A stretch of 64,000 nucleotides of DNA from Christensenellaceae bacterium (GTDB taxonomy: Bacteria; Bacillota; Clostridia; Christensenellales; UBA1242): positions 436,065 through 500,064 of the forward strand of contig JAISKJ010000003.1 of assembly GCA_031260975.1 (NCBI GenBank). The letters run 5' to 3'. The position numbers and the translations under genes are program-made. Positions 2,561 to 39,939 of this stretch are shown here, one piece after another. Below the pieces are notes generated by a model, which was given only the letters and a program-made list of their open reading frames with translations, made no database searches and had not been told where the DNA came from. Numbering within the stretch: position 1 is the stretch's first letter; each line of letters starts with the position of its first letter.

Positions 2561-2567
2561 GCTATAT

Positions 2568-3059: not shown

Positions 3060-3079
3060 GTCAGAAAAGGAGAGAAGAG

Positions 3080-3691
3080 ATGTATTCATTCATAAGAGGA
3101 GTTGTGGCAGATAAAAGTGAAAACAGCTTTGTGTTGGATAACGGAGGTATAGGCTATGAAATTCATGCCTCAAAAGCAGGTATAGACCGCGTAGATGTAG
3201 GGGATGAAATTACTGTTCATATCCACGAGCAGGTGACCGAATCAGGGATAAATCTGGTTGGGTTTATTGATATGAAAGAAAAAGAACTCTTTAATAAGCT
3301 GATTGGCATAAACGGTGTGGGCGTTAAGGCCATACTTACTATGTTTTCAAATGTTGATATTGACACAATAAACAGTATTATTGCAAAGGGTGACGCAAAG
3401 GAACTCAGCAAAATTAAGGGTGTGGGCCCCAAGACTGCCGAACGTATTGTTTTGGAGCTTAAGGGCAAGGTTACAGCTTCTGCTACTCCTGAACAAAAAA
3501 CAGCTGTCAAAAAAGACAACATTATCGGCGGCGACGGCCGAGAGATTGGCACGGACGTAATTGATGAAGTTGTGTCACTTCTAGAAGGCTTAGGAGTTGC
3601 CAAGGGTGAGGCACTCAGGCTTGCTAAACAGCAATATGAATTTGGGCTGACCGCCACTGATGTATTAGTCAGATGTCTAAGACACGTATAA
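3080..3691 (+). CDS. ruvA: Holliday junction DNA helicase RuvA
   Basis: 203 aa; HhH motifs (INGVGVKAIL, IKGVGPKTAERI); between ruvC and ruvB. Confidence 0.92.
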   Translation: MYSFIRGVVADKSENSFVLDNGGIGYEIHASKAGIDRVDVGDEITVHIHEQVTESGINLVGFIDMKEKELFNKLIGINGVGVKAILTMFSNVDIDTINSIIAKGDAKELSKIKGVGPKTAERIVLELKGKVTASATPEQKTAVKKDNIIGGDGREIGTDVIDEVVSLLEGLGVAKGEALRLAKQQYEFGLTATDVLVRCLRHV

Positions 3692-3700
3692 AGGAAACTT

Positions 3701-4783: not shown

Positions 4784-4799
4784 AAAAAGCATTGTAGGT

Positions 4800-4817
4800 T
4801 TGCATAATACTATGCAA
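4800..4817. repeat. palindromic repeat copy TTGCATAATACTATGCAA (perfect)
   Basis: 7-4-7 inverted repeat, identical to copies at 23025, 32782 and 32815; followed by ACTTTTTGTCGAAT flank shared with the 58685 locus. Confidence 0.9.
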
Positions 4818-4920
4818 CTTTTTGTCGAATTTTTGATAACTTATAAAAAATGATTGTAAAATAAATTAAAATGGTGTATCATAATATCATTAGTGTATAA
4901 CACAAACAAGGAGCGTTGAT

Positions 4921-5358
4921 ATGACAAATTTGTTGTTAGCAGATTTTAGTTGGGCCACTGCATGGCCGGTAATGTTGTTGGGAGTATTGCTTGTAGGCAT
5001 GATTGTTTTTCAGTTTGTAAGCCGCAAAAAATACTCAAAGCAGGAAGCTCAGATGCGCGAGCAGCTTAAAGTAGGTGACAAAATTGTGACCAACGCCGGA
5101 GTATACGGTGAAATTATAGAGTTTTCAGACACCAATTTTGGCAAGGTGGCTCTTATCAAAACCGGTGAGGGTGACAAAGTGAGTTACCTCAGTATTAATG
5201 CCAGCGTTATTTTAGGTATTGACGTAAAAGAGCCTGTTGTTTTGGATGCCGAAGGCAATCCTATTTTGCCTGCCGCTGAAAAAGTAGTAGCTGAGCCCAG
5301 CAGCAACCCAAGTACTGATGAAACACCCAAAAAATCTAAGAAAAAGAAAGAAGAATAA
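4921..5358 (+). CDS. yajC: preprotein translocase subunit YajC (long C-terminal tail)
   Basis: N-terminal TM helix then KVGDKIVTNAGVYGEI YajC core; precedes secDF region. Confidence 0.8.
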   Translation: MTNLLLADFSWATAWPVMLLGVLLVGMIVFQFVSRKKYSKQEAQMREQLKVGDKIVTNAGVYGEIIEFSDTNFGKVALIKTGEGDKVSYLSINASVILGIDVKEPVVLDAEGNPILPAAEKVVAEPSSNPSTDETPKKSKKKKEE

Positions 5359-6580: not shown

Positions 6581-7951
6581 ATGTATGATAGTGATGAAAG
6601 CGTCCCCGAAAATAGAATATCAAAGAAAAAAGAAGTGCAGGCAGACGCTTCAAAGAGACGCATGGGAAGACCATCCAATGCTTACAAAATTATGCAGGAA
6701 CTCAAAGCACAAGGCGTGGATGTTGATGTTATATTTGGAATTTATCTTATTAACCCTAGGTCTAACTACATACCTAAAAGGCTGAGAGAGGAACTGTCGC
6801 CGGAAGCATTGGTGCAATCGGTTGAAATTATTGCTTCTGAAGAAGCTGATAAACCTACAGTCATTAAACATGGCCTCAAATGGCCTGCTAAGATTGACAA
6901 AGAAATTGATGCAAAAAAAGAGATATCTATTAAAGAAGACCTAGCATCCATAGCTGTCAGGATTGACCCTTATAAGTTTGGCTGGCCTAAGAGGGGTAGC
7001 GGCAGGTTGCTTTATGCCGAAAAGGAACGCAGGATTGCGCAGTTCTTTACAAGTCCCGATGGAGAAGCTTTGCTTAAAGAGCGGGGAATTGAGGGGGAGT
7101 TTGTAACGTTTAGTGTTGTGCCCTATGATGTTAATGTCAAAAAAGAAAGATTGTCAGCACCCAAAGGCGGACCGCTTGGTAGCCCCAATAAAGTAATGAG
7201 CGCAAAAAGGCTTGAAAAAATAAAAGAAAAAGAGGAAATATTTATGAAGCTTCCGCCTACGCTGCATGTTAAACAGAAAGATGAAATCGCTATACAAGTT
7301 AAACCTTTTGAAGAGACAGAAGGAGCACCGGAAGTGCCTGAAAATTTTGCCAACTGTATGAAAAACCTAAACGGTAAGCGTTGTTCTGTTGGCAGAGCTG
7401 TTGCAGACTCGCTGCATGCAGTTACGAACACACAGTGGTTTAGGTCGCAGTGTGTTGACACTATATCACTTAGAATAACCAGAAATAAAATAGGCATGTT
7501 TATGGCTGAGGTAGTGTTTAGGGATTATAATCAAAGGATGGTAAAGCAGCAGGAAATATTGCCTATAGGAGAAAGCCTAACAGCACTGACACCTGACACT
7601 AAGCATCACCCCATGCTTGAAGCTTTAAGCAGGCAGGTGACACCTGACAGAATACTTAATCTTAATTTTGAAAACTTGCACATAAACTATGAAACTACGC
7701 TTAACATAAGGCTTATTGGCATACAGCCAAGCAAAACAACGGAGCTTTGCAGAATAGAACGTTCACTTGAGATGTCGGCGAGAAAGATTGCCGACCAGGA
7801 TGAGGTTTTAGCTGAAGCCCACGAAGAAAGTGCACTTGACGAACCTATATTCAAGGCACTTAATGCTTTTGAGAAAAGTGCAAAAGAGAAATTTGGACGA
7901 AAGTATGCCATTTCAAGATATGACGAGATTTTAAGAGGCGGTATGCAATAA
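6581..7951 (+). CDS. hypothetical protein, 456 aa, no domain recognised
   Basis: Long ORF, GGAGGG SD 8 nt upstream, start abuts upstream frame stop (TGAtATG); terminator follows. Confidence 0.75.
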   Translation: MYDSDESVPENRISKKKEVQADASKRRMGRPSNAYKIMQELKAQGVDVDVIFGIYLINPRSNYIPKRLREELSPEALVQSVEIIASEEADKPTVIKHGLKWPAKIDKEIDAKKEISIKEDLASIAVRIDPYKFGWPKRGSGRLLYAEKERRIAQFFTSPDGEALLKERGIEGEFVTFSVVPYDVNVKKERLSAPKGGPLGSPNKVMSAKRLEKIKEKEEIFMKLPPTLHVKQKDEIAIQVKPFEETEGAPEVPENFANCMKNLNGKRCSVGRAVADSLHAVTNTQWFRSQCVDTISLRITRNKIGMFMAEVVFRDYNQRMVKQQEILPIGESLTALTPDTKHHPMLEALSRQVTPDRILNLNFENLHINYETTLNIRLIGIQPSKTTELCRIERSLEMSARKIADQDEVLAEAHEESALDEPIFKALNAFEKSAKEKFGRKYAISRYDEILRGGMQ

Positions 7952-10718: not shown

Positions 10719-13064
10719 ATGAAAGATTTAACCCAAGAAATATCCAAAACTTATAACCTAAACGACATAGTGACACAACTGCTTGTTTTGAGGGGTGTTG
10801 ACACCAAAGAGAAGGTAGAAAAGTTCCTCAACCCGAGCTTTGATGATTTTCACGACCCGTTTAGACTTAGGGGTATGAAAGAAGCCGTATCGCGCGTAGA
10901 AGACGCTATAAAGAGGAACCAAAAAGTGCTTATTTTTGGTGACTATGATGTTGATGGTGTTTCGGCCACGGCGATTTTAATGCGCTATTTTAAGGATATA
11001 AATTTTGCTGTTGACTTTTATTTGCCTAATAGATATATAGATGGCTATGGGCTGACCTGTGCAGTTTTGGATAAAATTAAACAGCACTTTTGTCCCGACC
11101 TTATTATTACTGTGGATTGCGGAATATCGTGCCACAAAGAAGTGGAGCATGCAAAAACGCTTGGGATTGAAATAATTATCACTGACCATCATGAAATCCC
11201 CGAAACAATCCCTAAAACAATTGTTATAGACCCAAAACTCCCGGGGCAGGAATATCCCTTTGACGGACTTTGCGGTGCAGGAGTAGCACTTAAGTTTGTG
11301 CAGGCTTTAAGCCGTCTTGAGCAGTCCAAGAAATATTTGGCTATTTGTGCTGTTGCAACGATTGCTGATATTGTGCCGCTTTTGGGTGAAAACAGAGCTA
11401 TTACCGCTATTGGGCTTAAGATGCTTAAAACCTTGCCGACCGGAGTAAAAATGCTAATGCAGCGCAGTAAAATGGATATGAATGCCGGGGCTTCAGATGT
11501 TGCTTTTAAGCTGGCGCCAAAGATAAATGCTGCGGGGCGTATGGGGGATGCGTCGGTTGCGCTTAATTTATATCTAAATGAAGATAAAAAGAAGCTTGAG
11601 CAGCTGGTTCAGAAATTAATCAATCTTAATACTGAGCGGCAGGGGCTGTGCAACGCGGTTTATGAAGAGGCTCAGAAGCGGCTGAATGATGTTAATCTGA
11701 CAAAAATGCGCTCTATTGTGTTATATTCAAAAGATTGGGACAGCGGCATTGTGGGGATTGTTGCGGCACGCCTTGCTGAGGAGTATAACAAGCCCACAGT
11801 TTTGATGGGGGAAGCCCATGGATTTTTAAAGGGCAGTGCCCGAAGTATAAATGATATTGACATTTGTTCAATTATTTCTAATATAAAAGAAACCGTAGAA
11901 ACTTTTGGCGGGCATAAAATGGCGGCAGGGCTCACTGTAAAAAAAGAAAATATTGACAAATTTATCAAAAGCCTTAACAGTGCTCTTGAAAAGGAATATA
12001 CTGCAGAGGACTATTTGCCAAAGCCAGATTATGATATGACACTAAATTTGGGGGATATTAATGAAAAATTGATATCTGACTTAAATGTTCTGGAGCCTTG
12101 CGGCTGCGGAAATCCTAAGCCTGCATTTTCGGTTGTGCTTAGCAAGTTTACTGTCGGCCCTATGCCTAATAATCCCAGCCATATTACCATGATGGCAATG
12201 GGCTTTAACGTAGTAGCTTTTGGCGCAAGTGATTATGTTCCTGTTCTTAAAAACACCAATCATGCTGATTTGAGCCTTGAGCTTCAAAGCCATGTTTACA
12301 ACGGACGCACATATATTAAGGGCGTAGCGAATAGTATTCGTATAGGCCGGCTAACTCCGCTTAAAAGCGAAGATTTTGCTCACGGAGTATATTTGAAGCA
12401 ATTTGTGAACCAAAATGCGCCCCATTCAGACTGTGAGGAGTATGACAAAGCAGAGCTTGATGAAATCATTAAGCAAGCCGAGAAAAACAAGTTCGGAACA
12501 CTTTTTGTCGTGTCGAGAAATCAGACTTATAATGATTTTGCAGGTTTTGAGGGGCTTAGGACTTATATGCTTGAAGTTGTCGACAAAAGCGGGCTGAATG
12601 CAGTGGTTCTGTCATGGACCGGCACTAAAAACCTCAACTGTTTTGACACGGTTGTGTGTCTGGACCCTGTGCTAAGTCAAAATTATATAAACACATTGGG
12701 CAAATATGGCGCAAGGATTTATATCCCTAAAACCAAGTTTGATTTTGATAAGGAAGTATTCACAGGGCTTGAGTTTGGCCGTGAAATATTTTTGGATTAT
12801 TTTAAAATGCTTAAAAGCTTTGCGGCGCAACGGGTGCCGGTTTTAAGTGAGGTATATTTATACAAGAGACTAAAAGCACTTAATCCGCACAAAAAGCTGA
12901 GCTTTAAGCAGTTTATATATTGTCTCTATTCATTTTTGGAGCTGGAAATATTTGAGCCCCAGGCTTGTGATGGCGGATTTTTATTAAAAGAAAAGAAGAG
13001 CAGTACCGCGCTTGAAAAGTCAGAGTTTTATAATACAATCAAATTGATTATAATGTCAATTTAA
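10719..13064 (+). CDS. recJ: single-stranded-DNA-specific exonuclease RecJ
   Basis: 781 aa; DHH motifs (GDYDVDGVS, ITDHHE), DHHA1 region (GGHKMAAG); follows secDF as in Bacillus. Confidence 0.92.
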   Translation: MKDLTQEISKTYNLNDIVTQLLVLRGVDTKEKVEKFLNPSFDDFHDPFRLRGMKEAVSRVEDAIKRNQKVLIFGDYDVDGVSATAILMRYFKDINFAVDFYLPNRYIDGYGLTCAVLDKIKQHFCPDLIITVDCGISCHKEVEHAKTLGIEIIITDHHEIPETIPKTIVIDPKLPGQEYPFDGLCGAGVALKFVQALSRLEQSKKYLAICAVATIADIVPLLGENRAITAIGLKMLKTLPTGVKMLMQRSKMDMNAGASDVAFKLAPKINAAGRMGDASVALNLYLNEDKKKLEQLVQKLINLNTERQGLCNAVYEEAQKRLNDVNLTKMRSIVLYSKDWDSGIVGIVAARLAEEYNKPTVLMGEAHGFLKGSARSINDIDICSIISNIKETVETFGGHKMAAGLTVKKENIDKFIKSLNSALEKEYTAEDYLPKPDYDMTLNLGDINEKLISDLNVLEPCGCGNPKPAFSVVLSKFTVGPMPNNPSHITMMAMGFNVVAFGASDYVPVLKNTNHADLSLELQSHVYNGRTYIKGVANSIRIGRLTPLKSEDFAHGVYLKQFVNQNAPHSDCEEYDKAELDEIIKQAEKNKFGTLFVVSRNQTYNDFAGFEGLRTYMLEVVDKSGLNAVVLSWTGTKNLNCFDTVVCLDPVLSQNYINTLGKYGARIYIPKTKFDFDKEVFTGLEFGREIFLDYFKMLKSFAAQRVPVLSEVYLYKRLKALNPHKKLSFKQFIYCLYSFLELEIFEPQACDGGFLLKEKKSSTALEKSEFYNTIKLIIMSI

Positions 13065-21566: not shown

Positions 21567-21671
21567 GTCATTGTGAGCTTTGCTCCGGCGGCTTATTTAT
21601 GAAGCAATCCATTAATATATTATTTAATTATGGGAATGCTTAGTCAGCAGCTGAAGTGAAGTTCATAGTGA
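21567..21671. repeat. about 105-bp imperfect inverted-repeat element (arms GTCAYTRTGARCTT ... AAGCAWTCC)
   Basis: Left arm 21567-21616 versus reverse complement of 21628-21671 pair at both ends; termini resemble the 13112-13211 element. Confidence 0.55.
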
Positions 21672-21699: not shown

Positions 21700-23010
21700 T
21701 TGACTGAAGAAAAACTAAACAAAACAGTTGGATTTGTGTCGCTTGGGTGTGACAAAAACAGGGTGGATACCGAAAGCATAATAACCACTCTTTATGCTAA
21801 TGGTTTTAAAACAACAGGAAACATAAATGATGCTCAGATAATAATAATAAACACCTGTGCTTTTTTAAAGTCTGCTCGTGATGAGGCTCTTGCCACTATG
21901 CTTGAAATGCTGGATTATAAAAAGACAAGTGCCGAAAAAATAATCGTGGCAGGCTGTCTTTGTCAAATGGATGATAAGCTCAAAGAAAAGTATCCTGAGA
22001 TTGACGCTTTTATTACGCCCAAGGATTATGGCGATATTGCAAAGATAATATACGGCCTTTATGGAAAGCCTTATAAAAACTCCAACGGTGTTCCGGATTA
22101 TCGCAAAATTACAACGCCCGGGCATTTTGCATATCTTAAGATTGCCGAAGGCTGTGACAATTCCTGTAGCTATTGCACAATTCCAAAAATTAAAGGACCC
22201 TATGTCAGCGAACCTATTGAAAGTCTTGTAAAAACGGCGACGATACTTGCTGAGCAGGGAGTGAAGGAGCTCATTTTGGTGGCGCAGGATACCACAAGGT
22301 ATGGGCTTGACTTATATAAAAAACAGACTATTGCTGAGCTTTTAAAAAAGCTTAGTGAAATTAATGGTATTGAATGGATACGCTTGCATTATTGTTATCC
22401 TGAGATGCTGACGCCGGCAATAATAAACGAAATTGCGACTAACCCCAAGGTTGTAAAGTATCTGGATATTCCGTTTCAGCATGTAAGCACAAAGGTACTT
22501 AAGTCCATGAACAGAGCAGGCAACGAGCAATCTGTAAAATTGATTGTTGAAATGCTGCGCTCTAAAATTCCGGAGATAGTGCTCAGGTCCACTTTTATTG
22601 TAGGCTTTCCGGGGGAAACTAATGAGGACTTTAAACTTCTTTTGAAGTTTTTGAAGGAATATAAATTGGATGCCGTCGGCTTCTTTGCATATTCAAATGA
22701 AGAGGGAACTCCATCTTTTGAATTTGATGGGCAACTTAGTCAAAAAGAAAAGCAAAAGAGGCTGGAGGCCGCTCAGAAGATTCAAAGCAAAATTGCCTTT
22801 GAGCTAAATCAAAAGTTTATAGGCGCCACCCAAAAGGTGTTGTGCGACGGATTTGATCAGGCGAATGGCCTATATTATGGGCGTAACTATGGTAGCTCAC
22901 CGGACGTTGATTTTGTTGTGTATATAAATGGGAAATGCAGTATAGGTGATTTTGTATCAGTAAAAATTACTGATGCAACAGACGAGTATTTGATAGGGGA
23001 AATTGCATAG
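21700..23010 (+). CDS. rimO: ribosomal protein S12 methylthiotransferase RimO
   Basis: 436 aa; UPF0004 N-domain, radical-SAM CDNSCSYC, TRAM C-domain; TTG start. Confidence 0.9.
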   Translation: MTEEKLNKTVGFVSLGCDKNRVDTESIITTLYANGFKTTGNINDAQIIIINTCAFLKSARDEALATMLEMLDYKKTSAEKIIVAGCLCQMDDKLKEKYPEIDAFITPKDYGDIAKIIYGLYGKPYKNSNGVPDYRKITTPGHFAYLKIAEGCDNSCSYCTIPKIKGPYVSEPIESLVKTATILAEQGVKELILVAQDTTRYGLDLYKKQTIAELLKKLSEINGIEWIRLHYCYPEMLTPAIINEIATNPKVVKYLDIPFQHVSTKVLKSMNRAGNEQSVKLIVEMLRSKIPEIVLRSTFIVGFPGETNEDFKLLLKFLKEYKLDAVGFFAYSNEEGTPSFEFDGQLSQKEKQKRLEAAQKIQSKIAFELNQKFIGATQKVLCDGFDQANGLYYGRNYGSSPDVDFVVYINGKCSIGDFVSVKITDATDEYLIGEIA

Positions 23011-23042
23011 TATTATGCAATAGTTTGCATAATACTATGCAA
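23003..23042. repeat. two perfect palindromic repeat copies in opposite orientation (TTGCATAGTATTATGCAA tagt TTGCATAATACTATGCAA)
   Basis: 23003-23020 and 23025-23042; first copy contains the rimO stop codon. Confidence 0.92.
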
Positions 23043-23069
23043 ACTTTAGTCACACAAAGGAGAGATATA

Positions 23070-24296
23070 ATGAATATAAGTATACTTACAGTCAGCAACA
23101 GCGAAGTTATATCAACGGCACCAAACAGCGCCCTTTGTTTGGTTGCTTCTACGCTTCACAAAAGCGGTTTTAACATAGCTGAAAACAATCATTTGTCGGT
23201 GGATGCCGCTGTAACTCTTAGTAATCTTACGCAGGCTTATGAACACAGTGACTGTGTAATTTTGGCTGTTCAAGATCAGATAGATTATGCTTATGTTTTG
23301 AAAAAGACTGTTGCCAAATATTTTGAGGACGAGGTTGTGCCAAATATCTACGCCAAAAACGCGCTTTCAAATTATTATAAGGCGCAAAATGTGCCGCTTC
23401 CTAAGGATGCGCTGTCACACGCGCAGATGCCAAAGAGCGCACGGGCAATTTTAAACGATCTTGGCCCCATGCAGGGATTTTTGATGGAAAAGCAAGGCAA
23501 GCTGCTGTTTTTTATGCCATATACCGAAATTGAACTGAAGGATATGTTCATAAAATCCGTTTTGCCATATCTTATCGAAAACACCAAGGAGCGCAGCAAG
23601 ACCATAATTTTTAAGCTTTTTGGGCTGACGCAAAATGAGATTTTATCAATTTTGAAGGACCTTCGGAAAAACAAGCAGAAGATAAACATTATTTGCAGCG
23701 AAACGCTTTTGGATTGTGAACTTATTATCGACTTTTCTGAAAAGACCGAGCAGATTGTGATTGACGGGCTTGTTTCCACAATATATAAGAGGCTTGGAAA
23801 TTACATTTATGCTGACAGCGACATAAGCCTGCCTGAGTGCTTGCTGGGTTTGCTGAATGTCAAAAATAATTCACTTGTTTGTGCCGAGGACGCTACTTGT
23901 GGTGCTGTGAGTGCGGGGCTTCTGGCAGCCGGACCCAAGGCCGCCGAGAGACTTGTTGAAAGCTTTATAGTTCCTAATAAAAACAGCAAAATCAAGAATT
24001 TGGGCGTTGATGCCGATTTGTTCAGAGGCGCAAATGTTGATGCAAACGAAGTGGTTTATCAGATGGCGGTGGGAGCACTTGAAAATTCATCCGCAAATTT
24101 TGTTGTAGCAACCTTTTCAAAAGGTGACACGCTATATCTTGGCATAGGAACTACTGACGGCATACATGTTTACACTCAAAACTTTAAAGGCTTGCTAAAG
24201 GAGCGCATTTCAAAGTTCAGTTCGGCCGCCTATTTTAATTTAATTAAGAAAATTAAGAAAAACGATTTTAATTTGCCGCAAAATGTAGTACAATGA
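23070..24296 (+). CDS. cinA: CinA-like competence/damage-inducible protein (divergent)
   Basis: 408 aa directly upstream of recA; AAGGAG SD before ATG 23070; ORF-track start 23025 is inside the repeat. Confidence 0.6.
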   Translation: MNISILTVSNSEVISTAPNSALCLVASTLHKSGFNIAENNHLSVDAAVTLSNLTQAYEHSDCVILAVQDQIDYAYVLKKTVAKYFEDEVVPNIYAKNALSNYYKAQNVPLPKDALSHAQMPKSARAILNDLGPMQGFLMEKQGKLLFFMPYTEIELKDMFIKSVLPYLIENTKERSKTIIFKLFGLTQNEILSILKDLRKNKQKINIICSETLLDCELIIDFSEKTEQIVIDGLVSTIYKRLGNYIYADSDISLPECLLGLLNVKNNSLVCAEDATCGAVSAGLLAAGPKAAERLVESFIVPNKNSKIKNLGVDADLFRGANVDANEVVYQMAVGALENSSANFVVATFSKGDTLYLGIGTTDGIHVYTQNFKGLLKERISKFSSAAYFNLIKKIKKNDFNLPQNVVQ

Positions 24297-24323
24297 AATC
24301 ACAAAGGTTAAGGAGAGAGAATT

Positions 24324-25328
24324 ATGGAAACCAAAAAACAGGAGCTGCTGGATCAGGCGATTTTGCAGATAGAAAAACAGTTTGGCAAAGGTGCTATTAT
24401 GAAGCTGGGAGAAGCTCCCCTTCAAAACATTGAAGTTATTTCAACGGGATGTTTGACGCTTGACAACGCCCTTGGCATCGGAGGTGTTCCAAGAGGAAGG
24501 ATTGTGGAAATTTATGGACCTGAGTCTTCGGGCAAAACCACGGTTGCGCTTCATATTGTGGCTGAGGCCCAAAAAAGTGGCGGAACGGCAGCGTTTATTG
24601 ACGCTGAGCACGCTCTTGACCCAATTTATGCCGGAAAGCTTGGCGTAAATATTGAGGATTTATATGTTTCGCAGCCTGACACGGGCGAGCAGGCGCTGGA
24701 TATCTGTGACACATTGGTTCGAAGCGGCGTATTTGATATTGTGGTTATAGATTCAGTGGCGGCTCTTACTCCAAAGGCTGAAATTGAAGGCGAGATGGGT
24801 GACAGTTTTATGGGGCTTCAGGCAAGACTGATGAGTCAGGCACTGAGAAAGTTGACCGGAATTACCAACAAAAGCAAGACCTGTATTGTGTTTATCAACC
24901 AGCTGAGAGACAAAATCGGTGTTATGTTCGGTTCGCCTGAAACTACCACCGGCGGAAAAGCTCTCAAATTTTATGCAAGCATCAGGATGGATGTGCGCAA
25001 AATTGACCAGGTTAAAGACGGAAATGAGCTTTCGGGAAATCGCGTGAGAGTAAAGGTTGTAAAAAACAAGCTTGCGCCGCCTTTCAGGCAGGCCGAGTTT
25101 GACATTATTTTTGGCAAGGGTATTTCAAATGAGGGCTGTATTGTTGATTTGGCCACCGAGTTTGAAATTTTGCAAAAGAGCGGCTCGTGGTATTCATATA
25201 AGGATGAAAAGATAGCGCAAGGTAAAGAAAATATAAAAACATATCTGGAAAAGAATCCTGAGATATCAAAAGAAATAGTAGAGCAGATAAAAGCAAAGAT
25301 TGCCGAGAAAAACCAGCAAAAGGACTGA
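24324..25328 (+). CDS. recA: recombinase RecA
   Basis: 334 aa; GPESSGKTT Walker A, near-complete RecA core sequence. Confidence 0.98.
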
Positions 25329-29134: not shown

Positions 29135-31714
29135 ATGGCACTTTCACCAATGATGCAACAGTATATGGAGATAAAACAAAACTATAAGGATTGCTTGGTA
29201 TTTTGTAGGCTCGGAGATTTTTATGAGCTGTTTTTTGACGATGCTTTGATAGCCTCAAAAGAGTTGGAGCTGACTCTCACGGGGCGAAACTGCGGCCTTG
29301 AAGAAAAGGCTCCCATGTGCGGTGTTCCTTATCACGCTGCCGAAGGGTATATAGCCAAACTTATTGAAAAGGGCCATAAAGTAGCAATTCTTGAGCAGCT
29401 CAGCGAGCCCGCTCCAGGCAGGCTTGTTGACAGACAGGTGGTAAGGGTGATTACTGCAGGCACGGTGACCGATGCCGGCATGCTTGATGACAAAAAGAAT
29501 AATTATATTGCGAGTATATATTTAGGTGACAAGGGCGCGGGAATTGCTTATGCCGATGTTGCAACGGGTGAATTTTGCGTAAATTCCTATCAGGAAGAAT
29601 TTTTGACAAACCTCAATGACACTCTTACGCGCATAAGACCTGCTGAAATAATATGCTCAAAACGGGTGCTTGAACAAATTGCCGAGATTCCTTGCGTGAA
29701 GGCTAACATAATGCCTCGGTTTGAAGAATATCCCGAAGTTTTTTTTGACTACAAAAACGCAACCGAAATAATAAAGCGCCAGCTTAAGATTGCTACGCTC
29801 ACAGGTTTTGATTTTGCCAAGCTTGAATATGCAATTTGCGCCAGCGGAGCGCTTATAAATTATATATTAGAAACTCAAAAACGAGACCTTAATCACATAA
29901 ACCGCATTATATGCGAAAAGAATGATTCTTATCTATATCTCGATCCGGCTACAACTCGCAATCTTGAACTTGTTGAAACAATCAGGGAGCAAAAGAAAAA
30001 GGGCTCATTGCTGGGGCTTTTGGATAATACCAAAACCAATATGGGAGCAAGGCTTCTGCGCACATGGATACTTCAGCCTTTGCGTGACCCAGAGCAAATC
30101 AATCGCAGACTTGAGGCTGAGGAAGAACTTATTGGCGAGCATATTTTGTTTAATGACATAACGGCGAGTCTTTCAAAAGTTTCGGATATCAGCAGGATTG
30201 CTGGCAAAATATCCTTTAATACCGTTATGCCGCGCGATTTGATTTTGCTCAAAAATTCGATTAAAGAAGCAATGGAGCTTAGTGTACTTGTAAAAAATCT
30301 TAAGAGTGAGACTTTAAATGGGCTTATTTCGGATTTTTATAAACTTAAAGAAGTTTTTGAAGAGATTGAAAAGGCTATTGATGAGGAACCACCTTTGGTG
30401 CTTACCAACGGAGGTTATATAAAGAAGGGATTTAGCGGTGACCTTGACAATCTTCGTGCCACAACAACTGACGCTCAGCAATGGCTTGCGGCACTTGAGG
30501 CAACCGAGCGTGAGCAAACGGGTATCAAAAACATTAAGGTTGGATATACGCGTGTGTTTGGATATTACTTAGAGGTTCCCAAGTCTCAGCAGGATCAGGT
30601 GCCGTATAGATATCAACGCAAGCAAACGGTGGTAGGAGCTGAGCGATATGTCACCGAAGAACTCAAACAGATTGAAGAAAAAATAATGAACAGCGAAGAG
30701 CTTTCACTCAAGCTTGAACAGCAGTTATACAGCGAGCTTAAAGAGTTTTTAAAAACCGCTGTAACAGCTCTTCAAAAAACGGCAGGAGACATTGCTATGC
30801 TTGACTGTATATGTGCACTTGCTGAAACTGCAAAGACACGCGGCTTTATAAAGCCCGTTATAAACGGCGGCATAAAGGCAATCAATATAACAGATGGCAG
30901 GCATCCCGTGGTTGAAGCGTTGCTTAAAGATGAGCAGTTTGTTCCTAATGACTGCTATCTTGACTGTGATAAAAACAGAACTATGATAATTACCGGTCCT
31001 AATATGGCCGGCAAAAGTACCTATATGAGGCAGGTGGCACTCATTGTTCTGCTTGCTCACATGGGCAGTTTTGTTCCGGCAAAATCTGCTGAGATTAGCC
31101 TTACTGACCGAATTTTTACTAGGATTGGCGCCAGCGATGATCTGGCATATGGGCAGAGTACGTTTATGGTGGAGATGGTTGAGGTTTCAAACATTTTAAA
31201 CAATGCAACCAAAAACAGTCTGCTTGTTTTGGATGAGGTTGGCCGAGGTACTTCCACTTTTGACGGGCTCAGTATTGCGTGGGCGGTAATTGAACATGTA
31301 ACCAAAAACATAAAAGCCAAAACACTTTTTGCCACGCACTATCACGAGCTTACTGAACTTGAAGGGCAGCTGGAGGGAACGAATAATTACCGCGTGGCTA
31401 TTCAGGAGTTTAACAACAGCATAATTTTCCTTCACAAAATTGTAAGAGGAGGCACCAGCCGAAGCTTTGGAATTGAAGTGGCGTCCCTTGCCGGCATAGG
31501 TTCAAATATAATAGGGCGGGCTAAGCAGATTTTGCATACCCTTGAGCAAAATGACCTTGAGGGTAGCAGTAAGCTTGTAACACTTGAAAAATCCAAAGAA
31601 CCAAAGGGGGAACTAACAGGCAAGCTGAAAAACCTTGATATGAATACTGTTACTCCTTTGGTGGCGTTTGACATTTTAAAGGAACTAAGCGATAAAGCTA
31701 AAAGGAGTGACTAA
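29135..31714 (+). CDS. mutS: DNA mismatch repair protein MutS
   Basis: MALSPMMQQYMEIK start with AAGGAG SD; GPNMAGKST Walker A; ORF-track start 29081 lies inside element E1. Confidence 0.97.
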   Translation: MALSPMMQQYMEIKQNYKDCLVFCRLGDFYELFFDDALIASKELELTLTGRNCGLEEKAPMCGVPYHAAEGYIAKLIEKGHKVAILEQLSEPAPGRLVDRQVVRVITAGTVTDAGMLDDKKNNYIASIYLGDKGAGIAYADVATGEFCVNSYQEEFLTNLNDTLTRIRPAEIICSKRVLEQIAEIPCVKANIMPRFEEYPEVFFDYKNATEIIKRQLKIATLTGFDFAKLEYAICASGALINYILETQKRDLNHINRIICEKNDSYLYLDPATTRNLELVETIREQKKKGSLLGLLDNTKTNMGARLLRTWILQPLRDPEQINRRLEAEEELIGEHILFNDITASLSKVSDISRIAGKISFNTVMPRDLILLKNSIKEAMELSVLVKNLKSETLNGLISDFYKLKEVFEEIEKAIDEEPPLVLTNGGYIKKGFSGDLDNLRATTTDAQQWLAALEATEREQTGIKNIKVGYTRVFGYYLEVPKSQQDQVPYRYQRKQTVVGAERYVTEELKQIEEKIMNSEELSLKLEQQLYSELKEFLKTAVTALQKTAGDIAMLDCICALAETAKTRGFIKPVINGGIKAINITDGRHPVVEALLKDEQFVPNDCYLDCDKNRTMIITGPNMAGKSTYMRQVALIVLLAHMGSFVPAKSAEISLTDRIFTRIGASDDLAYGQSTFMVEMVEVSNILNNATKNSLLVLDEVGRGTSTFDGLSIAWAVIEHVTKNIKAKTLFATHYHELTELEGQLEGTNNYRVAIQEFNNSIIFLHKIVRGGTSRSFGIEVASLAGIGSNIIGRAKQILHTLEQNDLEGSSKLVTLEKSKEPKGELTGKLKNLDMNTVTPLVAFDILKELSDKAKRSD

Positions 31715-33558
31715 TGAAAATAAACATATTAGACAGTAGCATATACAATCGAATTGCAGCGGGTGAAGTTGTTGAACGTCCTCATTCGATTGTCAAGGAG
31801 CTTGTTGAAAATAGCGTTGATTCGGGGGCTGACAGTATAATAATAGAAGTTGTGGGCGGCGGTATGCGCTCTGTGAAAGTGACTGACAACGGCAGTGGAA
31901 TTGACTTTGATGACCTGACGGCCGCATTTTTGCCGCATGCAACCAGCAAAATCAAAACAACCGACGACCTGAATTCAATCGCTACGCTGGGTTTTAGAGG
32001 TGAAGCACTTGCCAGCATCGGCTCGGTAAGTGAAATTATGTTGAGCTCCAAAACTAAAGGAGCCACTACCGGCGGTGAGGTTGAAGTAAGAGGCGGAACC
32101 ATTTCTAAACCCCATCCTAAGGGGTGCCCCGAAGGGACGCATGTTGTGGTGAATAACTTATTTTTTAATACTCCGGCCCGAGCCAAGTTTTTAAAGTCAG
32201 CCAAAACTGAAGAAAGTTATATCACCAATCTGGTTGAGCGCACAATCTTAGCCCATCCGAATATCAGTTTTAAGTATATTGTCGACGGCAAAATTGTATA
32301 TCAGACAACGGGCAAAGGCCTTGAAGAGGCGATTTATGTGATTTATGGCAAGGAAACAACGGGAAACTTAATCAGTGTAGAATATAAAAATTCTAGCCTA
32401 ACCATATCCGGTTTTGTGGGCCGACCGACTTATACTAAGCCTAATCGTACTTATCAGACGCTGGTCATAAACGGCAGGTATGTTGTTGACAGTCTTGTTT
32501 CAACGTCGGTTTTCAATGCTTTTTCGAACTATATGATGAAGGGCAGGTTCCCGTTTTTTGTTCTTTTTATAAATATGCCCTATGAGGATGTTGATGTAAA
32601 TGTTCATCCAAACAAGCTGGCTGTAAGATTTGTAAACTCCAATGGTGTGTATGTTGCGGTAAGCAATGCTGTCAGCGGCGCGTTGCTTAACGCCAACAAT
32701 ATTGTTGACGCTGTGACAACTGCTGAAAACGAGCCGATTGTGCCGATGCCAAAGGTGACGGGCAGGAGTTTTGGGGAGAGTTTGCATAATACTATGCAAA
32801 CCTTGGATGAAAAATTGCATAATACTATGCAAACAATTGACACAAAGCCCGCAGTTTCAAGTCCGATACTGCCAAATATTCCTATTACGCCTGTGGCAAC
32901 GCTAAAGGATGATGGTGGAATATATTATCAGACACTTCAGAATTATGTCAAGGCAGCTGCTCAGCCTGAAGTTTCACTTGCCGAAGGAGTTGAGGATTTT
33001 AAGATAATCGGCACAGTATTTACCACCTACATAATTGTGGAGCACAAAGGTGAAGCATATTTTATTGACCAGCACGCAGCGCACGAGCGGCTTTTGTTTG
33101 ACAAATTTTCGGCCGAATTTGAAAAGAAACAGGTTAATATCCAACAGCTGTTTGTGCCGTATGTGTTGCGGATTAATAGTGTTGAGGATGTATTTTTAAA
33201 GGAACACCTTAATGATTTTGGTGAGCTGGGCTTTGAGGTTTCGGAGTTTGGCAATCTTTCATACAAGGTTTCAAGTGTGCCGCTTAGCCTCAGTCAAATA
33301 GACCTGAGTGCATATTTTGATGACAGTCTTAAAAACCTTAACAAGCTTGGCAGCAGCGTTGAAGTCAGGCACTTTTTGGCCACAAAGGCATGCAAGGCAG
33401 CGGTCAAAGCCGGGCATGATTTAAATGGCACTGAAATTGCAACGCTGCTTAAAGAAATCAGCAAATCGGGAACAACCTTGCTTTGTCCGCACGGTAGGCC
33501 TGTTTGCGTAAGGCTTAAAAAAACCGACGTTGACAAATGGTTTAAGAGGATTGTATGA
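31714..33558 (+). CDS. mutL: DNA mismatch repair protein MutL
   Basis: 614 aa; GHKL ATPase motifs (ELVENSVDSGA, DNGSGI), C-terminal dimerisation domain (FIDQHAAHER). Confidence 0.95.
   Translation: MKINILDSSIYNRIAAGEVVERPHSIVKELVENSVDSGADSIIIEVVGGGMRSVKVTDNGSGIDFDDLTAAFLPHATSKIKTTDDLNSIATLGFRGEALASIGSVSEIMLSSKTKGATTGGEVEVRGGTISKPHPKGCPEGTHVVVNNLFFNTPARAKFLKSAKTEESYITNLVERTILAHPNISFKYIVDGKIVYQTTGKGLEEAIYVIYGKETTGNLISVEYKNSSLTISGFVGRPTYTKPNRTYQTLVINGRYVVDSLVSTSVFNAFSNYMMKGRFPFFVLFINMPYEDVDVNVHPNKLAVRFVNSNGVYVAVSNAVSGALLNANNIVDAVTTAENEPIVPMPKVTGRSFGESLHNTMQTLDEKLHNTMQTIDTKPAVSSPILPNIPITPVATLKDDGGIYYQTLQNYVKAAAQPEVSLAEGVEDFKIIGTVFTTYIIVEHKGEAYFIDQHAAHERLLFDKFSAEFEKKQVNIQQLFVPYVLRINSVEDVFLKEHLNDFGELGFEVSEFGNLSYKVSSVPLSLSQIDLSAYFDDSLKNLNKLGSSVEVRHFLATKACKAAVKAGHDLNGTEIATLLKEISKSGTTLLCPHGRPVCVRLKKTDVDKWFKRIV
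32782..32832. repeat. two perfect direct copies of the palindromic repeat, in frame inside mutL
   Basis: TTGCATAATACTATGCAAAC at 32782-32801 and 32815-32834, period 33 nt, translated LHNTMQT twice. Confidence 0.92.
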
Positions 33559-35720: not shown

Positions 35721-36314
35721 TTACAAAAATCGTATAATACCCACAACCCGTCCCAAAATTTTGACATCAAAAAAATATTGCGGAGCATATTTGTTGTTGT
35801 AGGCTTTTAACATTATATTTCCGTCCTGCCTGAAAAACCGTCTAAAAATCGGTTCATTGTTTATTACACATAAAATAATATCGCCGTTGTCGGCGTAAGT
35901 TTGTTTTTTTATTATAGCCAAGTCCCCCTTAATAATTCCGATACCTGTCATGCTGTCGCTGTCAACGCTGATTGCAAACAAATCTCCGTTAAAAAGATTG
36001 GCCGATACCTTAAAGCTTTGATTATAATAATCAAGAGACAGAGGCTTTTTAATGGTTATTTTATGGATAGTGCAAAATTGTTCGTTCAGGCTTTGTGAAT
36101 AGTCCGGTATAATTTCTATGGCACGGTTTTTATTGGTGCCTTTTCTGATTTTACCTCTTTCTTCAAGTTTTGTCAGGTAATAGAATATAGTGGAAGTTGA
36201 TTTAACATTCATTTCTTGCATAAGCTCGCGCACGGTAGGAGGATATCCATGCTCGCTAAGATGAATTTTAAGAATACGAAGGAGTTTATTTAGGGTTTCT
36301 TCTATTTTTAGCAT
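35721..36314 (-). CDS. lexA: LexA repressor (S24 peptidase)
   Basis: 197 aa; N-terminal wHTH (GYPPTVRELM), S24 domain with DSDSM serine and downstream Lys. Confidence 0.87.
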   Translation of the reverse strand: MLKIEETLNKLLRILKIHLSEHGYPPTVRELMQEMNVKSTSTIFYYLTKLEERGKIRKGTNKNRAIEIIPDYSQSLNEQFCTIHKITIKKPLSLDYYNQSFKVSANLFNGDLFAISVDSDSMTGIGIIKGDLAIIKKQTYADNGDIILCVINNEPIFRRFFRQDGNIMLKAYNNKYAPQYFFDVKILGRVVGIIRFL

Positions 36315-36324: not shown

Positions 36325-37362
36325 CTAATTATCCCGCAGTTTCACCTTATTTGCAGCGGATTTTCGGATATCCTCACTTATGGCGGCGTAATGTTTTCGT
36401 GTGGTGTTTACGTCTTTATGCCCCAAAACATCGGCCACCATATAAATATCGCCTGTTTCACGATATAAATTTGTGCCGTATGTACTTCTTAGCTTGTGGG
36501 GTGTAATTTTTTTGAGAGGAGTGGATACCGAACTATATTTTTTTACTAATTTTTCAACAGCTCTAACGCCGATTCTTTCGTTTCGAAGCGATAGAAATAG
36601 TGCATTGTCGTCGGTTTTTTTGTTAAGCTTGCGTTTTTCAAAATATTCTCTTAAGGCATCAGCCACTTCATCCGAAAAGTATAATATTGCCTGATTTCCG
36701 CCTTTTCGCATAATTCTGAAACTATTTGCATTAAAGTCGATATCATCCAAATTTAAACCCACAAGCTCGCTTATACGAATACCTGTTCCTAAAAAAAGCG
36801 TTAAAATTGCTAAATCTCGTGTTCTGGTATGCTTATTAAATTCAAGTTGCATATGGCTGAATTTGATAGGGGCTTCGGTTTGGTCCAAAAGCTTTACCAC
36901 CTCGTCAACCTCAAGGCGGATAATTTCTTTAGTGTGAATTTTTGGCATTTCTATTTTTGTTGCAACATTGGCGTCCAGCTTATCTTTGTTAAAAAAATAT
37001 TTAAAAAGACTGCGCACTGCTGCCAACTTGCGTGCCTTTGCCTTGTCGTTATTCTGAATTTTTTTGCCGTTATGCTCATAAAAACTCAGATATGATAAAA
37101 ACTTTTCAATATTTGAAGAGGTGACTGCATTTAGGTGCTTAAGTTCGAGCTCGGTAATCCGAAAGTTGTCGAATTTGGGAAGTTTTTTTACTAAAAAGTC
37201 AAAAAAAATGCCCAGATCCCTCGCATAGTTTATTCGAGTAAGAGGGGTGGTCCGGCTTTCAATACCTATGAAAAAGTCTTCGCAAAATTCGGGAAGCTCA
37301 CCCATGATGTTGTCTAGAGCTTGCGTATTTTTTTCGTTGCGTTCGACAAAATAATTACTCAC
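36325..37362 (-). CDS. tyrosine site-specific recombinase, XerC/XerD-like
   Basis: 345 aa; SAM-like N-domain, catalytic R..HKLR..LGHKDVNTTRKHY; GTG start; co-oriented 10 nt upstream of lexA. Confidence 0.85.
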   Translation of the reverse strand: MSNYFVERNEKNTQALDNIMGELPEFCEDFFIGIESRTTPLTRINYARDLGIFFDFLVKKLPKFDNFRITELELKHLNAVTSSNIEKFLSYLSFYEHNGKKIQNNDKAKARKLAAVRSLFKYFFNKDKLDANVATKIEMPKIHTKEIIRLEVDEVVKLLDQTEAPIKFSHMQLEFNKHTRTRDLAILTLFLGTGIRISELVGLNLDDIDFNANSFRIMRKGGNQAILYFSDEVADALREYFEKRKLNKKTDDNALFLSLRNERIGVRAVEKLVKKYSSVSTPLKKITPHKLRSTYGTNLYRETGDIYMVADVLGHKDVNTTRKHYAAISEDIRKSAANKVKLRDN

Positions 37363-37544: not shown

Positions 37545-37573
37545 TTGACATTTTTGGCAGGGAATATTATAAT
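37545..37573 (+). promoter_or_regulatory. consensus sigma-A promoter of serS (TTGACA-17-TATAAT)
   Basis: -35 at 37545-50, -10 at 37568-73. Confidence 0.75.
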
Positions 37574-37578
37574 ATAAA

Positions 37579-37596
37579 TTGCATAATGCTGTGCAA
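37579..37596. repeat. palindromic repeat copy, 2 mismatches (TTGCATAATGCTGTGCAA)
   Basis: Starts about 6 nt after the serS -10 box, at the predicted transcript 5' end. Confidence 0.8.
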
Positions 37597-37611
37597 ACTT
37601 TTGGAGGAAAA

Positions 37612-38901
37612 ATGATAGACATAGAGCTTATAAGAAACAATCCTGAAATGGTCAAAAAAAATATAAAAAAGAAGTTTCAGGACAAAAAACTGCCGCTTGT
37701 TGATGAGGTGAAAACTCTCGACATAAGAAGCCGCAGTCTTAAGCAGGAAATTGACAGTCTCAGAAGCAGCCGCAACAAGTTGAGCCAAGAAATTGGCGAG
37801 TTTATGAAGCAAAAGAAAAGCAGTCAGGCTGAAACGCTGAAAAAACAGGTTGTGGATATAAACACTAAGGTTGCTGAGCTTGAGACGGAATATAATGAGG
37901 TAGGCACAAAAATCAACCAAATTATGATGACAATTCCAAATATCATAGCTGATGATGTGCCGGTTGGCCGCAGCGACGCCGAAAATGTTGAGCGTGAAGT
38001 GTTTGGCAAGCCAAAGAAGCCGGATTTTGAAATTCCATATCATGCCGATATTATGGAGAATTTGTGTGGGCTTGACAAAGATAGTGCCGGAAAAACCTCA
38101 GGTAATGGATTTTATTTTTTGATGGGTGATGTGGCAAGGCTTCATTCAGCCATTTTGTCGTATGCCCGTGATTTTATGATAGACAAGGGTTTTAATTATT
38201 GTATTCCTCCGTTTTTGATACACGCAGACGTGGTCAGAGGCGTTATGAGCTTTGCTGAAATGGACGCTATGATGTATAAAATTGAAGGCGAGGACCTTTA
38301 TATGATAGGCACCAGCGAGCACTCAATGATAGGAAAATATAAAGATGCCGTTTTAAAGGAAGAAGATCTTCCGATTTGTCTTACGTCATATTCGCCGTGC
38401 TTCCGTAAAGAAGTTGGTGCACACGGCATTGAGGAACGCGGCATATACAGAGTTCATCAGTTTGAAAAGCAGGAAATGATAGTAATTTGCAAAAAAGAAG
38501 AAGCTAGAATGTGGTATGATAAAATGTCGCATTTTGCGGTTGATTTTTTTAAAAGTCTTGAACTGCCGGTGCGTATTTTAGAATCATGTAGCGGGGATTT
38601 GGCCGATTTAAAGGTTAAGGGTTGCGATATTGAGGGATTTAGTCTGAGGCAGCAAAAGTATTTGGAGCTTGGAAGCTGTTCGGATATGGGAGACGCTCAG
38701 GCACGAAGGCTGGGTATGCGATATAAGACGGCAAGTGGTACAGTTTTTGCGAACACTTTAAACAACACCGTTGTGGCTACACCCAGGGTGTTGACTGTGT
38801 TTTTTGAAAATCATCTGCAAAAAGATGGTTCGGTAAATATACCAAAAGCTCTTCAGCCTTATATGGGAGGCAAAACTAAGCTGGAACCAAAAAAGAAATG
38901 A
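37612..38901 (+). CDS. serS: seryl-tRNA synthetase
   Basis: MIDIELIRNNPE start with GGAGG SD; coiled-coil N-domain, class II motifs. Confidence 0.96.
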   Translation: MIDIELIRNNPEMVKKNIKKKFQDKKLPLVDEVKTLDIRSRSLKQEIDSLRSSRNKLSQEIGEFMKQKKSSQAETLKKQVVDINTKVAELETEYNEVGTKINQIMMTIPNIIADDVPVGRSDAENVEREVFGKPKKPDFEIPYHADIMENLCGLDKDSAGKTSGNGFYFLMGDVARLHSAILSYARDFMIDKGFNYCIPPFLIHADVVRGVMSFAEMDAMMYKIEGEDLYMIGTSEHSMIGKYKDAVLKEEDLPICLTSYSPCFRKEVGAHGIEERGIYRVHQFEKQEMIVICKKEEARMWYDKMSHFAVDFFKSLELPVRILESCSGDLADLKVKGCDIEGFSLRQQKYLELGSCSDMGDAQARRLGMRYKTASGTVFANTLNNTVVATPRVLTVFFENHLQKDGSVNIPKALQPYMGGKTKLEPKKK

Positions 38902-39036: not shown

Positions 39037-39939
39037 TTGAAAAAACAAAGAATTGAACAATTTGCAACAGAAGTTAATGGCGATACTGCCAAAGAAAATT
39101 ATAAAATTGCACTTAATGTAATCATAGAGGCGCTTGAGGGGCTAACCGGTAAGGTGTCTACACTGACGCCCGAGGAAGTGCGTGTTTTTCCGATGGGTGA
39201 GCTCACCAACGGCACCTTTGTTGACACAAACGATGAAATTGAAATAGCTCTTGTCACCAGCAATCCTCAAATGGCGTTTACAAATTCCGCCTACATAAGA
39301 CTTATGTCTGAGATTAAAAAACAGAAAGACCGCGACGCAGTCAGTTCAGACAACACTACACATCAAATCATACAGCTTTTGTTTGATGAATTTATTAAAT
39401 TGTTTTCGGCTGACACTACAATCATTATAACTCAACAAGGAATAAAAATATTATCTAACAAGGAGCTTGGCTTTAAAATTATGTTACGCCTCGGCACGTA
39501 TAATGCCTATGACACAAATTTTGTGCTGTCACTGTGGAATCCTGTGCGAAAAACAACTGAAAATCTTGATATTTTCGGCTATGCTGAAGCTATGAAAAAG
39601 AAAGACGATGATACAGACGGCAACTTTAACAAAATTGTAAGAATTTTTAAAAACTTCCGTAAAGCTGTTGTGGCCAATAAATGGTTCGGCAGTTCATTTG
39701 CAAACAAATATCTGGTTGAGATGGTAGTATACAACATACCAAACTCATTGCTTAAAGGCAGTGATGTATATAAGGTTTATGTCAAAAGTATAAATTATTT
39801 ACTGAATTGTCCGCTGAGTAGTTTTAAATCTTTTAACGGCGGGCAGCTTAGTAGTTTTCCGATAGCAGGCGCAGATCAATATCACATAAAAACTTTCCTG
39901 AGCAGCTGCAGCAGATTGCTGGCGCTCAAGGATGTATAA
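39037..39939 (+). CDS. hypothetical protein, possibly a divergent Pol-beta-fold nucleotidyltransferase (CD-NTase/SMODS-like layout)
   Basis: 300 aa, TTG start with AAAAGGAG SD; MGELTNGTFVDTNDEIEIALV resembles hG[GS]x9-13DhDh with GE and EIE substitutions; later FNKIVRIFKNFRK...YLVEMVVYNIP helices. Confidence 0.35.
   Translation: MKKQRIEQFATEVNGDTAKENYKIALNVIIEALEGLTGKVSTLTPEEVRVFPMGELTNGTFVDTNDEIEIALVTSNPQMAFTNSAYIRLMSEIKKQKDRDAVSSDNTTHQIIQLLFDEFIKLFSADTTIIITQQGIKILSNKELGFKIMLRLGTYNAYDTNFVLSLWNPVRKTTENLDIFGYAEAMKKKDDDTDGNFNKIVRIFKNFRKAVVANKWFGSSFANKYLVEMVVYNIPNSLLKGSDVYKVYVKSINYLLNCPLSSFKSFNGGQLSSFPIAGADQYHIKTFLSSCSRLLALKDV

Follow-up and report, generated by a model that had tools for sequence, protein, structure and literature searches.

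The 64,000-nucleotide stretch of contig JAISKJ010000003.1 from a Christensenellaceae bacterium that we analyzed (here called the window) carries, between rimO and cinA, two copies of an 18-bp palindrome that are the subject of this report. rimO (21700-23010, plus strand) encodes ribosomal protein S12 methylthiotransferase (TIGR01125, 473 bits), cinA (23070-24296, plus strand) encodes a divergent CinA/PncC-domain protein, and recA (24324-25328, plus strand) begins 27 nt downstream of cinA. The gap between rimO and cinA is 59 nt long and is filled by both palindrome sites. Copy 1, TTGCATAGTATTATGCAA, occupies 23003-23020 and contains the rimO stop codon (TAG, 23008-23010). Copy 2, TTGCATAATACTATGCAA, occupies 23025-23042 and is an exact reverse complement of the first. 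Between them lies the spacer TAGT (23021-23024), and their centers are 22 bp apart. An earlier note on this DNA had described a perfect inverted pair 4 nt apart, with the rimO stop codon in the first copy and the second ending about 15 nt ahead of the cinA ribosome-binding site, and these points are borne out by the coordinates. The "opposite orientation" of the copies needs one qualification, however. Since each unit is palindromic except for its four central bases (GTAT versus ATAC), orientation is set by only 2 of the 18 positions, and the orientation of the central bases varies among relatives (centers GAAC/ATAC, ATAC/GTAC, and GTAC).

From the end of copy 2 it is 15 nt to the cinA ribosome-binding site (GGAGAG, with GGAG at approximately 23058 and the ATG eight bases downstream) and 27 nt to the cinA ATG. 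The true start of cinA is this ATG at 23070, in agreement with homologues and with independent gene calls. A longer open reading frame (ORF), 23025-24296, starts at a TTG and reads LHNTMQT at its N terminus (with M in place of L if the TTG is counted as a start). Because the homologues and the independent gene calls begin at 23070, this N-terminal stretch is a spurious cinA extension that translates the palindrome, as the earlier note had already recognized. The ATG within the palindrome, at 23037, is also in frame with cinA.

The pair belongs to a larger family. When up to three mismatches were allowed, the 18-mer gave 19 strand-hits in the window against 0.13 expected, a number reached in none of 100 shuffles, and it is the dominant, and only substantial, repeat family of the window. 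There are ten full copies and one half-site. Across relatives, the family consensus is a perfect palindrome, TTGCATAGT followed directly by ACTATGCAA. The copies resemble one another over no more than about 24 bp, a stretch that is symmetric in its own right. Where copies are paired in the window, their centers lie 21, 22, 22, and 33 bp apart.

Apart from the rimO-cinA pair, copies are found at five places in the window. A single copy (4800-4817) lies in the ruvB/yajC intergenic region, with its center some 58 nt ahead of the start inferred for yajC transcription. Two copies 33 bp apart (32782-32799 and 32815-32832) lie within the linker of mutL, in frame, and each encodes LHNTMQT. The linker of mutL (31714-33558) is variable and disordered, and the palindrome copies account for two odd peptide repeats in MutL. 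A degenerate copy, TTGCATAATGCTGTGCAA (37579-37596), is found at the predicted serS transcription start, just after TTGACA-17-TATAAT. The serS upstream region (37545-37612) combines a near-consensus promoter, a short leader, and a degenerate palindrome at +1 to +18. No T-box was found in the serS leader by Rfam matching, which is unusual for an aminoacyl-tRNA synthetase gene of Bacillota. Two copies 21 bp apart with right arm TATTCAA (40997-41035, starting at 40997 and 41018) occupy the intergenic region between two divergent genes, one for a DUF45/YgjP-like metallopeptidase (40322-41002, minus strand) and one for a PadR-family protein with putative membrane helices, here PadR-TM (41147-42913, plus strand). 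The half-site, TTGCATAGTAT (41085-41095, plus strand), lies in the same region, 5 nt upstream of the -35 element (TTGACT) of the PadR-TM gene. A further pair with centers 22 bp apart (58708-58747, starting at 58708 and 58730) separates the minus-strand genes thiI and ppa; it directly adjoins the stop codon of thiI and leaves 28 nt to the -35 element of ppa. A perfect Spo0A-box-like heptamer, TGTCGAA, flanked by T-runs, stands beside the yajC and ppa copies (4823-4829 and 58687-58693, the latter on the minus strand), and the string common to the two places is TATGCAAyTTTTTGTCGAATTTT. We considered this heptamer as well and dropped it because it is not kept in L126, a relative described below.

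The sites are conserved at orthologous positions. The CinA sequence itself is identical to that of a protein from a Christensenellaceae MAG, and contigs of relatives were retrieved through homologues of CinA, PadR-TM, and ThiI. The rimO-cinA pair recurs in L043 (CinA 85% identical) with a spacing of 22 bp, the first copy again overlapping the rimO stop codon, and in L045 (CinA 80%) with a spacing of 33 bp. L046 (CinA 60%) has a single perfect palindrome and a half-site directly after pgsA, upstream of a GNAT gene and cinA. Unlike the window, L043, and L045, L046 has its rimO stop codon outside the palindrome. The thiI-ppa pair recurs in L126 (ThiI 81%), where it again adjoins the stop codon of thiI and stops 28 nt short of the ppa -35 element, and the DUF45-PadR pair recurs together with its half-site in L125 (PadR-TM 76%). 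The mutL-internal sites of L043 comprise one good and one degenerate copy, which encode LHSAMQT and LPDTMQT, respectively, at the same place as in the window. Flanking sequence has diverged around all of the conserved sites. In L127 (ThiI 64%), ppa follows rnhA rather than thiI, yet two direct GTACTATGCAA units precede it. Because ppa keeps the motif despite its new neighbor, the motif belongs to the downstream gene rather than to the junction. Over the window and the relatives, pair spacings are 21, 22, 22, 22, 21, 33, 33, and 33 bp, that is, two or three helical turns. No palindrome was found in the 10 to 13 kb available from relatives with CinA 40 to 49% identical, and in L122 to L124, where the order is rimO-pgsA-cinA, there is neither a gap nor a palindrome.

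The earlier note had stated that in many Bacillota pgsA adjoins cinA-recA-rny, and had pointed out that here pgsA and rny lie far away on the other strand. Both observations hold. In the window, pgsA (54299-54892, minus strand; 81% identical to a PF01066 protein of L125) lies beside rny (56277-57827, minus strand; 91% identical to an RNase_Y protein of L125), and the two are also neighbors in L125. In four relatives (L046, L122, L123, and L124; CinA 40 to 60% identical), the order is M16-ftsK-rimO-pgsA-cinA-recA, with an extra GNAT gene in L046, and in the window, L043, and L045, rimO directly adjoins cinA, so the position of pgsA between rimO and cinA is ancestral and pgsA moved in this clade. 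The note had asked whether the repeat is absent where pgsA is still in place; L046 has both. The palindrome was therefore gained upstream of cinA before pgsA left, and its distal copy later supplied the rimO stop codon. No palindrome remnant flanks the relocated pgsA in L125, and the window has there only an unconvincing 8-mer, GTATGCAAG. Both the maximum of cumulative GC skew and a switch in gene orientation fall at about 48 kb, so the window spans the replication terminus. Comparison with L127 revealed further reshuffling around this point.

To judge what is being conserved, we oriented 21 sites by local transcription and compared their arms. The half ACTATGCAA is almost invariant, and positions 1 to 3 and 16 to 18 are invariant in all 21. 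The other arm varies (C4 is changed to A in five sites), and such changes are never compensated; no double changes indicative of covariation were found among the 21 sites. Further, the conserved DUF45-PadR pair folds poorly as RNA (-4.8 and -9.9 kcal/mol on the two strands). The lack of compensatory changes and this poor folding indicate that selection acts on the sequence and not on a hairpin, which, together with the helical-phase spacing and the functional half-sites, points to recognition by a protein.

A candidate for that protein is encoded in the window. PadR-TM, about 590 aa long, has an N-terminal LmrR-like PadR winged-helix domain (about 45% identical to LmrR), followed by an acidic linker of about 330 residues and C-terminal hydrophobic stretches that we read by eye as approximately four membrane helices. 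Its homologues form a large family in Clostridia, with lengths of 520 to 730 residues. We examined the 300 nt upstream of the homologues in 75 metagenome loci (L047 to L121). The half-site TGCATARTA occurs there at 1.55/kb versus 0.069/kb elsewhere, a 22-fold enrichment, and usually stands 5 to 7 nt before a TTGACa -35 element, often twice. In a looser test, 26 of 70 loci were positive compared with 9.4% of control windows (p = 2e-9). In L075 and L083, direct 12-nt repeats keep the same TGCA-N8-TGCA core spacing, because TGCA is self-complementary, and the 11-nt direct repeats of L127 give TGCA-N7-TGCA. The DUF45/YgjP-like metallopeptidase is a conserved partner, being encoded by the divergent upstream gene in at least 37 of the 75 loci. 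This divergent pair, present also in L125 and L127, is usually followed by ABC-transporter genes.

A scan for the exact 18-mer in 185,579 species-representative genomes, a set to which the source genome does not belong, gave 41 hits, all of them single in their genomes, and the genomes concerned span phyla and range from 24 to 62% GC. Small PadR genes directly follow the exact 18-mer in two Coriobacteriia (L009 and L025), where it overlaps the -10 element, and in a metagenome-assembled genome (MAG) of the Porphyromonadaceae (L015). No PadR gene was found beside the hits in Clostridia MAGs; the genes downstream of those hits, named from N-terminal sequence only, were dapF (four times), a trxB-like gene, ridA, and argR, and no common regulon emerged among them. 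Because the motif is borne by its own promoter here and in many other Clostridia, PadR-TM seems to us the most likely binder of the palindromes.

On balance, we lean toward reading the rimO-cinA pair as a tandem operator, made up of two 18-bp sites for a dimeric PadR-family winged-helix regulator that would act on cinA-recA. The earlier note had offered an operator of cinA-recA as one of two possibilities, and this is the better-supported half of what it proposed. Each site would present two TGCA cores 12 bp apart (T-TGCA-N8-TGCA-A), and the center-to-center distance of 22 bp, about two helical turns, would place two PadR-type dimers on the same face of the DNA, where they could cooperate. Since there is no detectable promoter in the 59-nt gap, the bound protein would most plausibly serve as a roadblock or insulator that sets the level of rimO read-through into cinA-recA; alternatively, it might control a weak promoter hidden within the sites. 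The regulator may act both ways, because sites lie upstream of the -35 element at ppa, yajC, and the PadR-TM gene but at +1 in the case of serS. The motif family, its upkeep at orthologous junctions, the spacing in helical phase, the lack of covariation, and the link to PadR genes are observed, while the binder and the sign of its effect, repression or activation, are inferred.

Known PadR-family operators resemble the sites in several respects. Their usual geometry is ATGT-N8-ACAT, with two 4-bp cores 8 bp apart, and the Clostridium difficile cdPadR1 box is GTACTAT(N2)ATTATA(N)AGTA (PMC5050560). Like the operators of LmrR, Bacillus subtilis PadR, and cdPadR1, the window unit (T-TGCA-TAGTACTA-TGCA-A) is an inverted repeat with 4-bp cores about 12 bp apart. 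As in those systems, sites occur in the regulator's own promoter (40997-41035 and 41085-41095) and several sites stand adjacent to each other, as for higher-order binding. The inner part of the palindrome (ATAGTAC/GTACTAT) also matches the cdPadR1 box. The cores differ, being TGCA/TGCA rather than the canonical ATGT/ACAT, and so do the setting and the protein: typical PadR proteins are soluble and 110 to 180 aa long, unlike PadR-TM with its disordered linker, putative membrane helices, and DUF45 metallopeptidase partner, and the window sites precede genes for housekeeping and repair, with some falling within mutL itself. The motif and its regulon are best read as new, but of a known PadR-operator kind.

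Two other kinds of box invite comparison. AphA, a PadR-family protein of Vibrio, recognizes ATGCAA-N4-TTGCAT and binds adjacent sites cooperatively (PMC6855506). Its hexamer half-sites are identical to those of the 18-mer, and the junction between the two rimO-cinA copies (23015-23030) matches the AphA box at 12 of 12 positions, as does the thiI-ppa junction (58720-58735) at 11 of 12. Single copies and the 21- and 33-bp pairs are unmatched, the half-sites within each 18-mer face the other way (TTGCAT-N6-ATGCAA), and the AphA protein itself matches PadR-TM only weakly (E = 1e-3). Escherichia coli ARG boxes are 18 bp long and are separated by 3 bp. The ARG boxes of ArgR and the NrdR boxes share with the window family an arrangement of 18- or 16-bp palindromes in tandem and in helical phase, but differ in half-site and internal spacing (TGAAT-N4-ATTCA) and in their targets, arginine and nucleotide reduction.

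Several findings count against the PadR operator reading. The binder is assigned through guilt by association. The strict half-site was found upstream of PadR-TM homologues in only 24 of the 75 loci, and the full palindrome is rare there (about 4 of 75). The small PadR proteins beside exact 18-mers have a recognition helix unlike that of PadR-TM, so another PadR paralogue could be the binder. No recognizable sigma-70-type promoter was found at the rimO-cinA pair. The proposed targets yajC, cinA-recA, serS, and ppa have no obvious theme in common. For a transcription factor regulon the copies are unusually perfect and dense, and two of them run in frame through mutL, as a spreading repeat might. 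Finally, the rimO-cinA pair could form, in RNA, a stem of 18 uninterrupted base pairs (-25.6 kcal/mol, z = -7.6). The perfection and density of the copies, the conserved mutL copies, and the absence of a theme among the target genes are the reasons why we keep a role at the RNA level, or one resembling that of repetitive extragenic palindromic (REP) elements, as minority explanations.

At the RNA level, the pair as a long hairpin, or each copy as a hairpin of 7 to 9 bp, could terminate transcription, pause it, stabilize the rimO message, or make a processing site that uncouples cinA-recA. We consider this unlikely. In its favor, the 18-bp stem is accompanied by a fold of -20.7 kcal/mol for the thiI-ppa pair, copies abut the upstream stop codon at ruvB, rimO, thiI, pgsA of L046, and rnhA of L127, the variant copies at 37579 and 58730 can still pair through G-U in the sense strand, and ATAC, the asymmetric form of the center, falls mostly on that strand. 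Against it, the arms tolerate uncompensated changes without covariation, the conserved DUF45-PadR pair hardly folds, and the lone half-sites and direct 11- to 12-nt repeats are conserved upstream of -35 elements, where they need not be transcribed. A scan of 23003-23050 for an intrinsic terminator found no G+C-rich stem with a U-tract (the 7-bp arm holds only two G-C pairs and the tail is ACUUUAGU), and an Rfam scan of the window matched one tRNA only, leaving the palindrome pair unmatched. The sequence is, moreover, unchanged across phyla over a wide range of GC content. A selfish repeat of the REP/REPIN type, in which a transposase copies palindromes into intergenic DNA and tolerant coding linkers without a specific regulatory role, would account for the many near-identical, mostly intergenic copies within 64 kb, for their frequent pairing as inverted doublets, for the two in-frame copies in the disordered mutL linker, and for a copy number that seems expanded relative to the relatives with CinA 40 to 49% identical. 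REP elements, too, are short palindromes just past stop codons, often in inverted doublets able to form a long hairpin. We nevertheless rate this explanation as improbable. Unlike REP elements, the window family keeps its positions between species, down to 60 to 64% protein identity (L043, L045, L046, L125, and L126), tracks the downstream gene (it stays with ppa in L127), and shows no covariation between its arms. Similarity stops at a symmetric 24 bp or so, spacing follows the helical repeat, and many unrelated genomes show the motif in association with PadR promoters. No transposase gene, whether of the RAYT (IS200/IS605-like) kind or another, was identified among the scanned ORFs of the window (about 11 of approximately 48 large ORFs were not scanned directly, and three were scanned without a Pfam match).

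The remaining explanations fare less well. The earlier note had placed the pair at an apparent rearrangement junction, and gene order did change here, but the repeat is neither the product nor the marker of the change. That the inverted pair is a scar or a recombination substrate, made by the removal of pgsA or having mediated it, would fit the displacement of pgsA from its place in four relatives to the side of rny in this clade, a rimO stop codon that the palindrome furnishes in the window, L043, and L045 and that lies outside it in L046, and the position of the window at the terminus, where inversions are common. It becomes very doubtful given that L046 keeps pgsA with the palindrome already after it, that identical pairs stand at junctions unconnected to pgsA, and that the new pgsA site has no remnant in L125 and only the doubtful 8-mer in the window. 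It is also highly unlikely that the palindrome serves a known regulator encoded in the window, as a lineage-specific LexA box (linking cinA-recA to the SOS response) or an NrtR box (linking cinA/pncC to NAD salvage), although both lexA (35721-36314, minus strand; second gene of an operon with a xer-like gene) and nrtR (49927-50751, minus strand; beside nadE and pncB) are present, CinA has an NMN-deamidase domain, and the site lies immediately upstream of the recA operon, where the LexA (Cheo) box is usually found in Bacillota. The window contains no exact GAAC-N4-GTTC and, with one mismatch, 10 hits against 17.8 expected by chance, none of them between rimO and recA; a box-like GAAGTGAAGTTC at 21653-21664, 47 nt upstream of rimO, has one mismatch and is within chance. 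Neither a LexA box near recA, cinA, or lexA nor a separate recA promoter or LexA box in 24297-24323 was found. The absence of a canonical box counts in favor of the LexA reading. The palindrome, however, is unrelated in sequence to GAAC-N4-GTTC, and in L046 recA is separately promoted, with a canonical GAACGGATGTTT box (12493-12504) and a TGCTACAAT promoter, side by side with the palindrome. In addition, no copy precedes ruvC or recJ, and the sole copy in the gap between xer-lexA and serS is degenerate and, 217 nt away from xer, coincides with the start of serS transcription. We therefore rejected the palindrome as a LexA box, and the link to DNA damage implied in the earlier note is unsupported. 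In the window clade, the LexA-controlled promoter belonging to recA itself seems to have disappeared. The palindromes recognized by NrtR are 21 bp long and have a GT-N7-AC core (PMC2330246), a shape that the even 18-bp palindrome with its central GTAC/ATAC lacks, and no copy lies near the nrtR-nadE-pncB operon (49.9 to 54.0 kb), so this assignment was rejected as well. Least credible to us is a forespore-type promoter, in which GCATA (23005-23009) and CATAATA (23028-23034), 18 nt apart in the 22-bp pairs, resemble the sigma-G consensus. The same arrangement is found in the thiI-ppa pair and in L043, and relatives carry sporulation genes, but this would leave unexplained the single copies, the 33-bp pairs, the conserved symmetric right arm, and the PadR sites in nonsporulating phyla.

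If the PadR operator reading is correct, recA in a gut Christensenellaceae lineage would be under PadR-type control as part of a rimO-cinA-recA unit, and not under a canonical LexA box, an unusual wiring for a core repair gene. It would also supply a DNA motif for the membrane-anchored PadR proteins of Clostridia, a large and uncharacterized family, and for the DUF45 proteases that accompany them. A wider proposal, which we put forward tentatively, is that the membrane-tethered PadR regulator and the divergent DUF45/YgjP-like metalloprotease form an uncharacterized Clostridia-wide signaling module that recognizes TTGCATAGTACTATGCAA. Its regulon might have expanded in this Christensenellaceae lineage to cinA-recA (replacing the LexA box seen before recA in L046), ppa, yajC, serS, and the in-frame mutL sites. 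The protease might free the DNA-binding domain from the membrane, or the protein, while tethered, might keep these terminus-proximal loci there. Our literature search found nothing on the motif in Christensenellaceae, on membrane-anchored PadR proteins, or on the DUF45/PadR-TM pair. The locus also carries a caution for comparative work, in that a repeat sitting at a synteny breakpoint proved to be a cis element of the downstream gene and not a product of the rearrangement.

The palindrome also matters for annotation, since it accounts for the false N-terminal extension of cinA and for an uncertain start of the DUF45 gene. By alignment of homologues, DUF45 in the window probably starts at the motif's own ATG (TATGCAA, 41000-41002), which belongs to the proximal copy. 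Gene prediction for L125 puts the DUF45 start at the corresponding ATG in the distal copy, and for L046 it begins the GNAT gene at a half-site ATG (9446). Automatic start calls are likely to be wrong for genes that adjoin these sites.

Other features of the window and its relatives deserve brief mention. The recombinase gene in the operon with lexA (36325-37362) is XerS/XerA-like and lies 11 kb from the terminus region. Directly downstream of the relocated pgsA is an NAD-salvage cluster (49927-54892, minus strand) comprising nrtR, nadE, a pncB-like gene, and an ORF of 282 aa; in L046, cinA is followed by genes for an RNK-like kinase and an NMNAT-like protein, and in the window this NAD-salvage neighborhood has been split up. 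Pfam matched none of three ORFs, 6581-7951, 39037-39939, and 53157-54005 (456, 300, and 282 aa, respectively); for the one of 300 aa, NCBIfam gave a weak match to an anti-phage nucleotidyltransferase. In L127 (positions 1-5061; CinA 47% identical), a sigma-factor gene (possibly sigF), spoVAC/AD/AEB, and yunB lie beside pheST-thiI, so that at least some members of the group carry sporulation genes.

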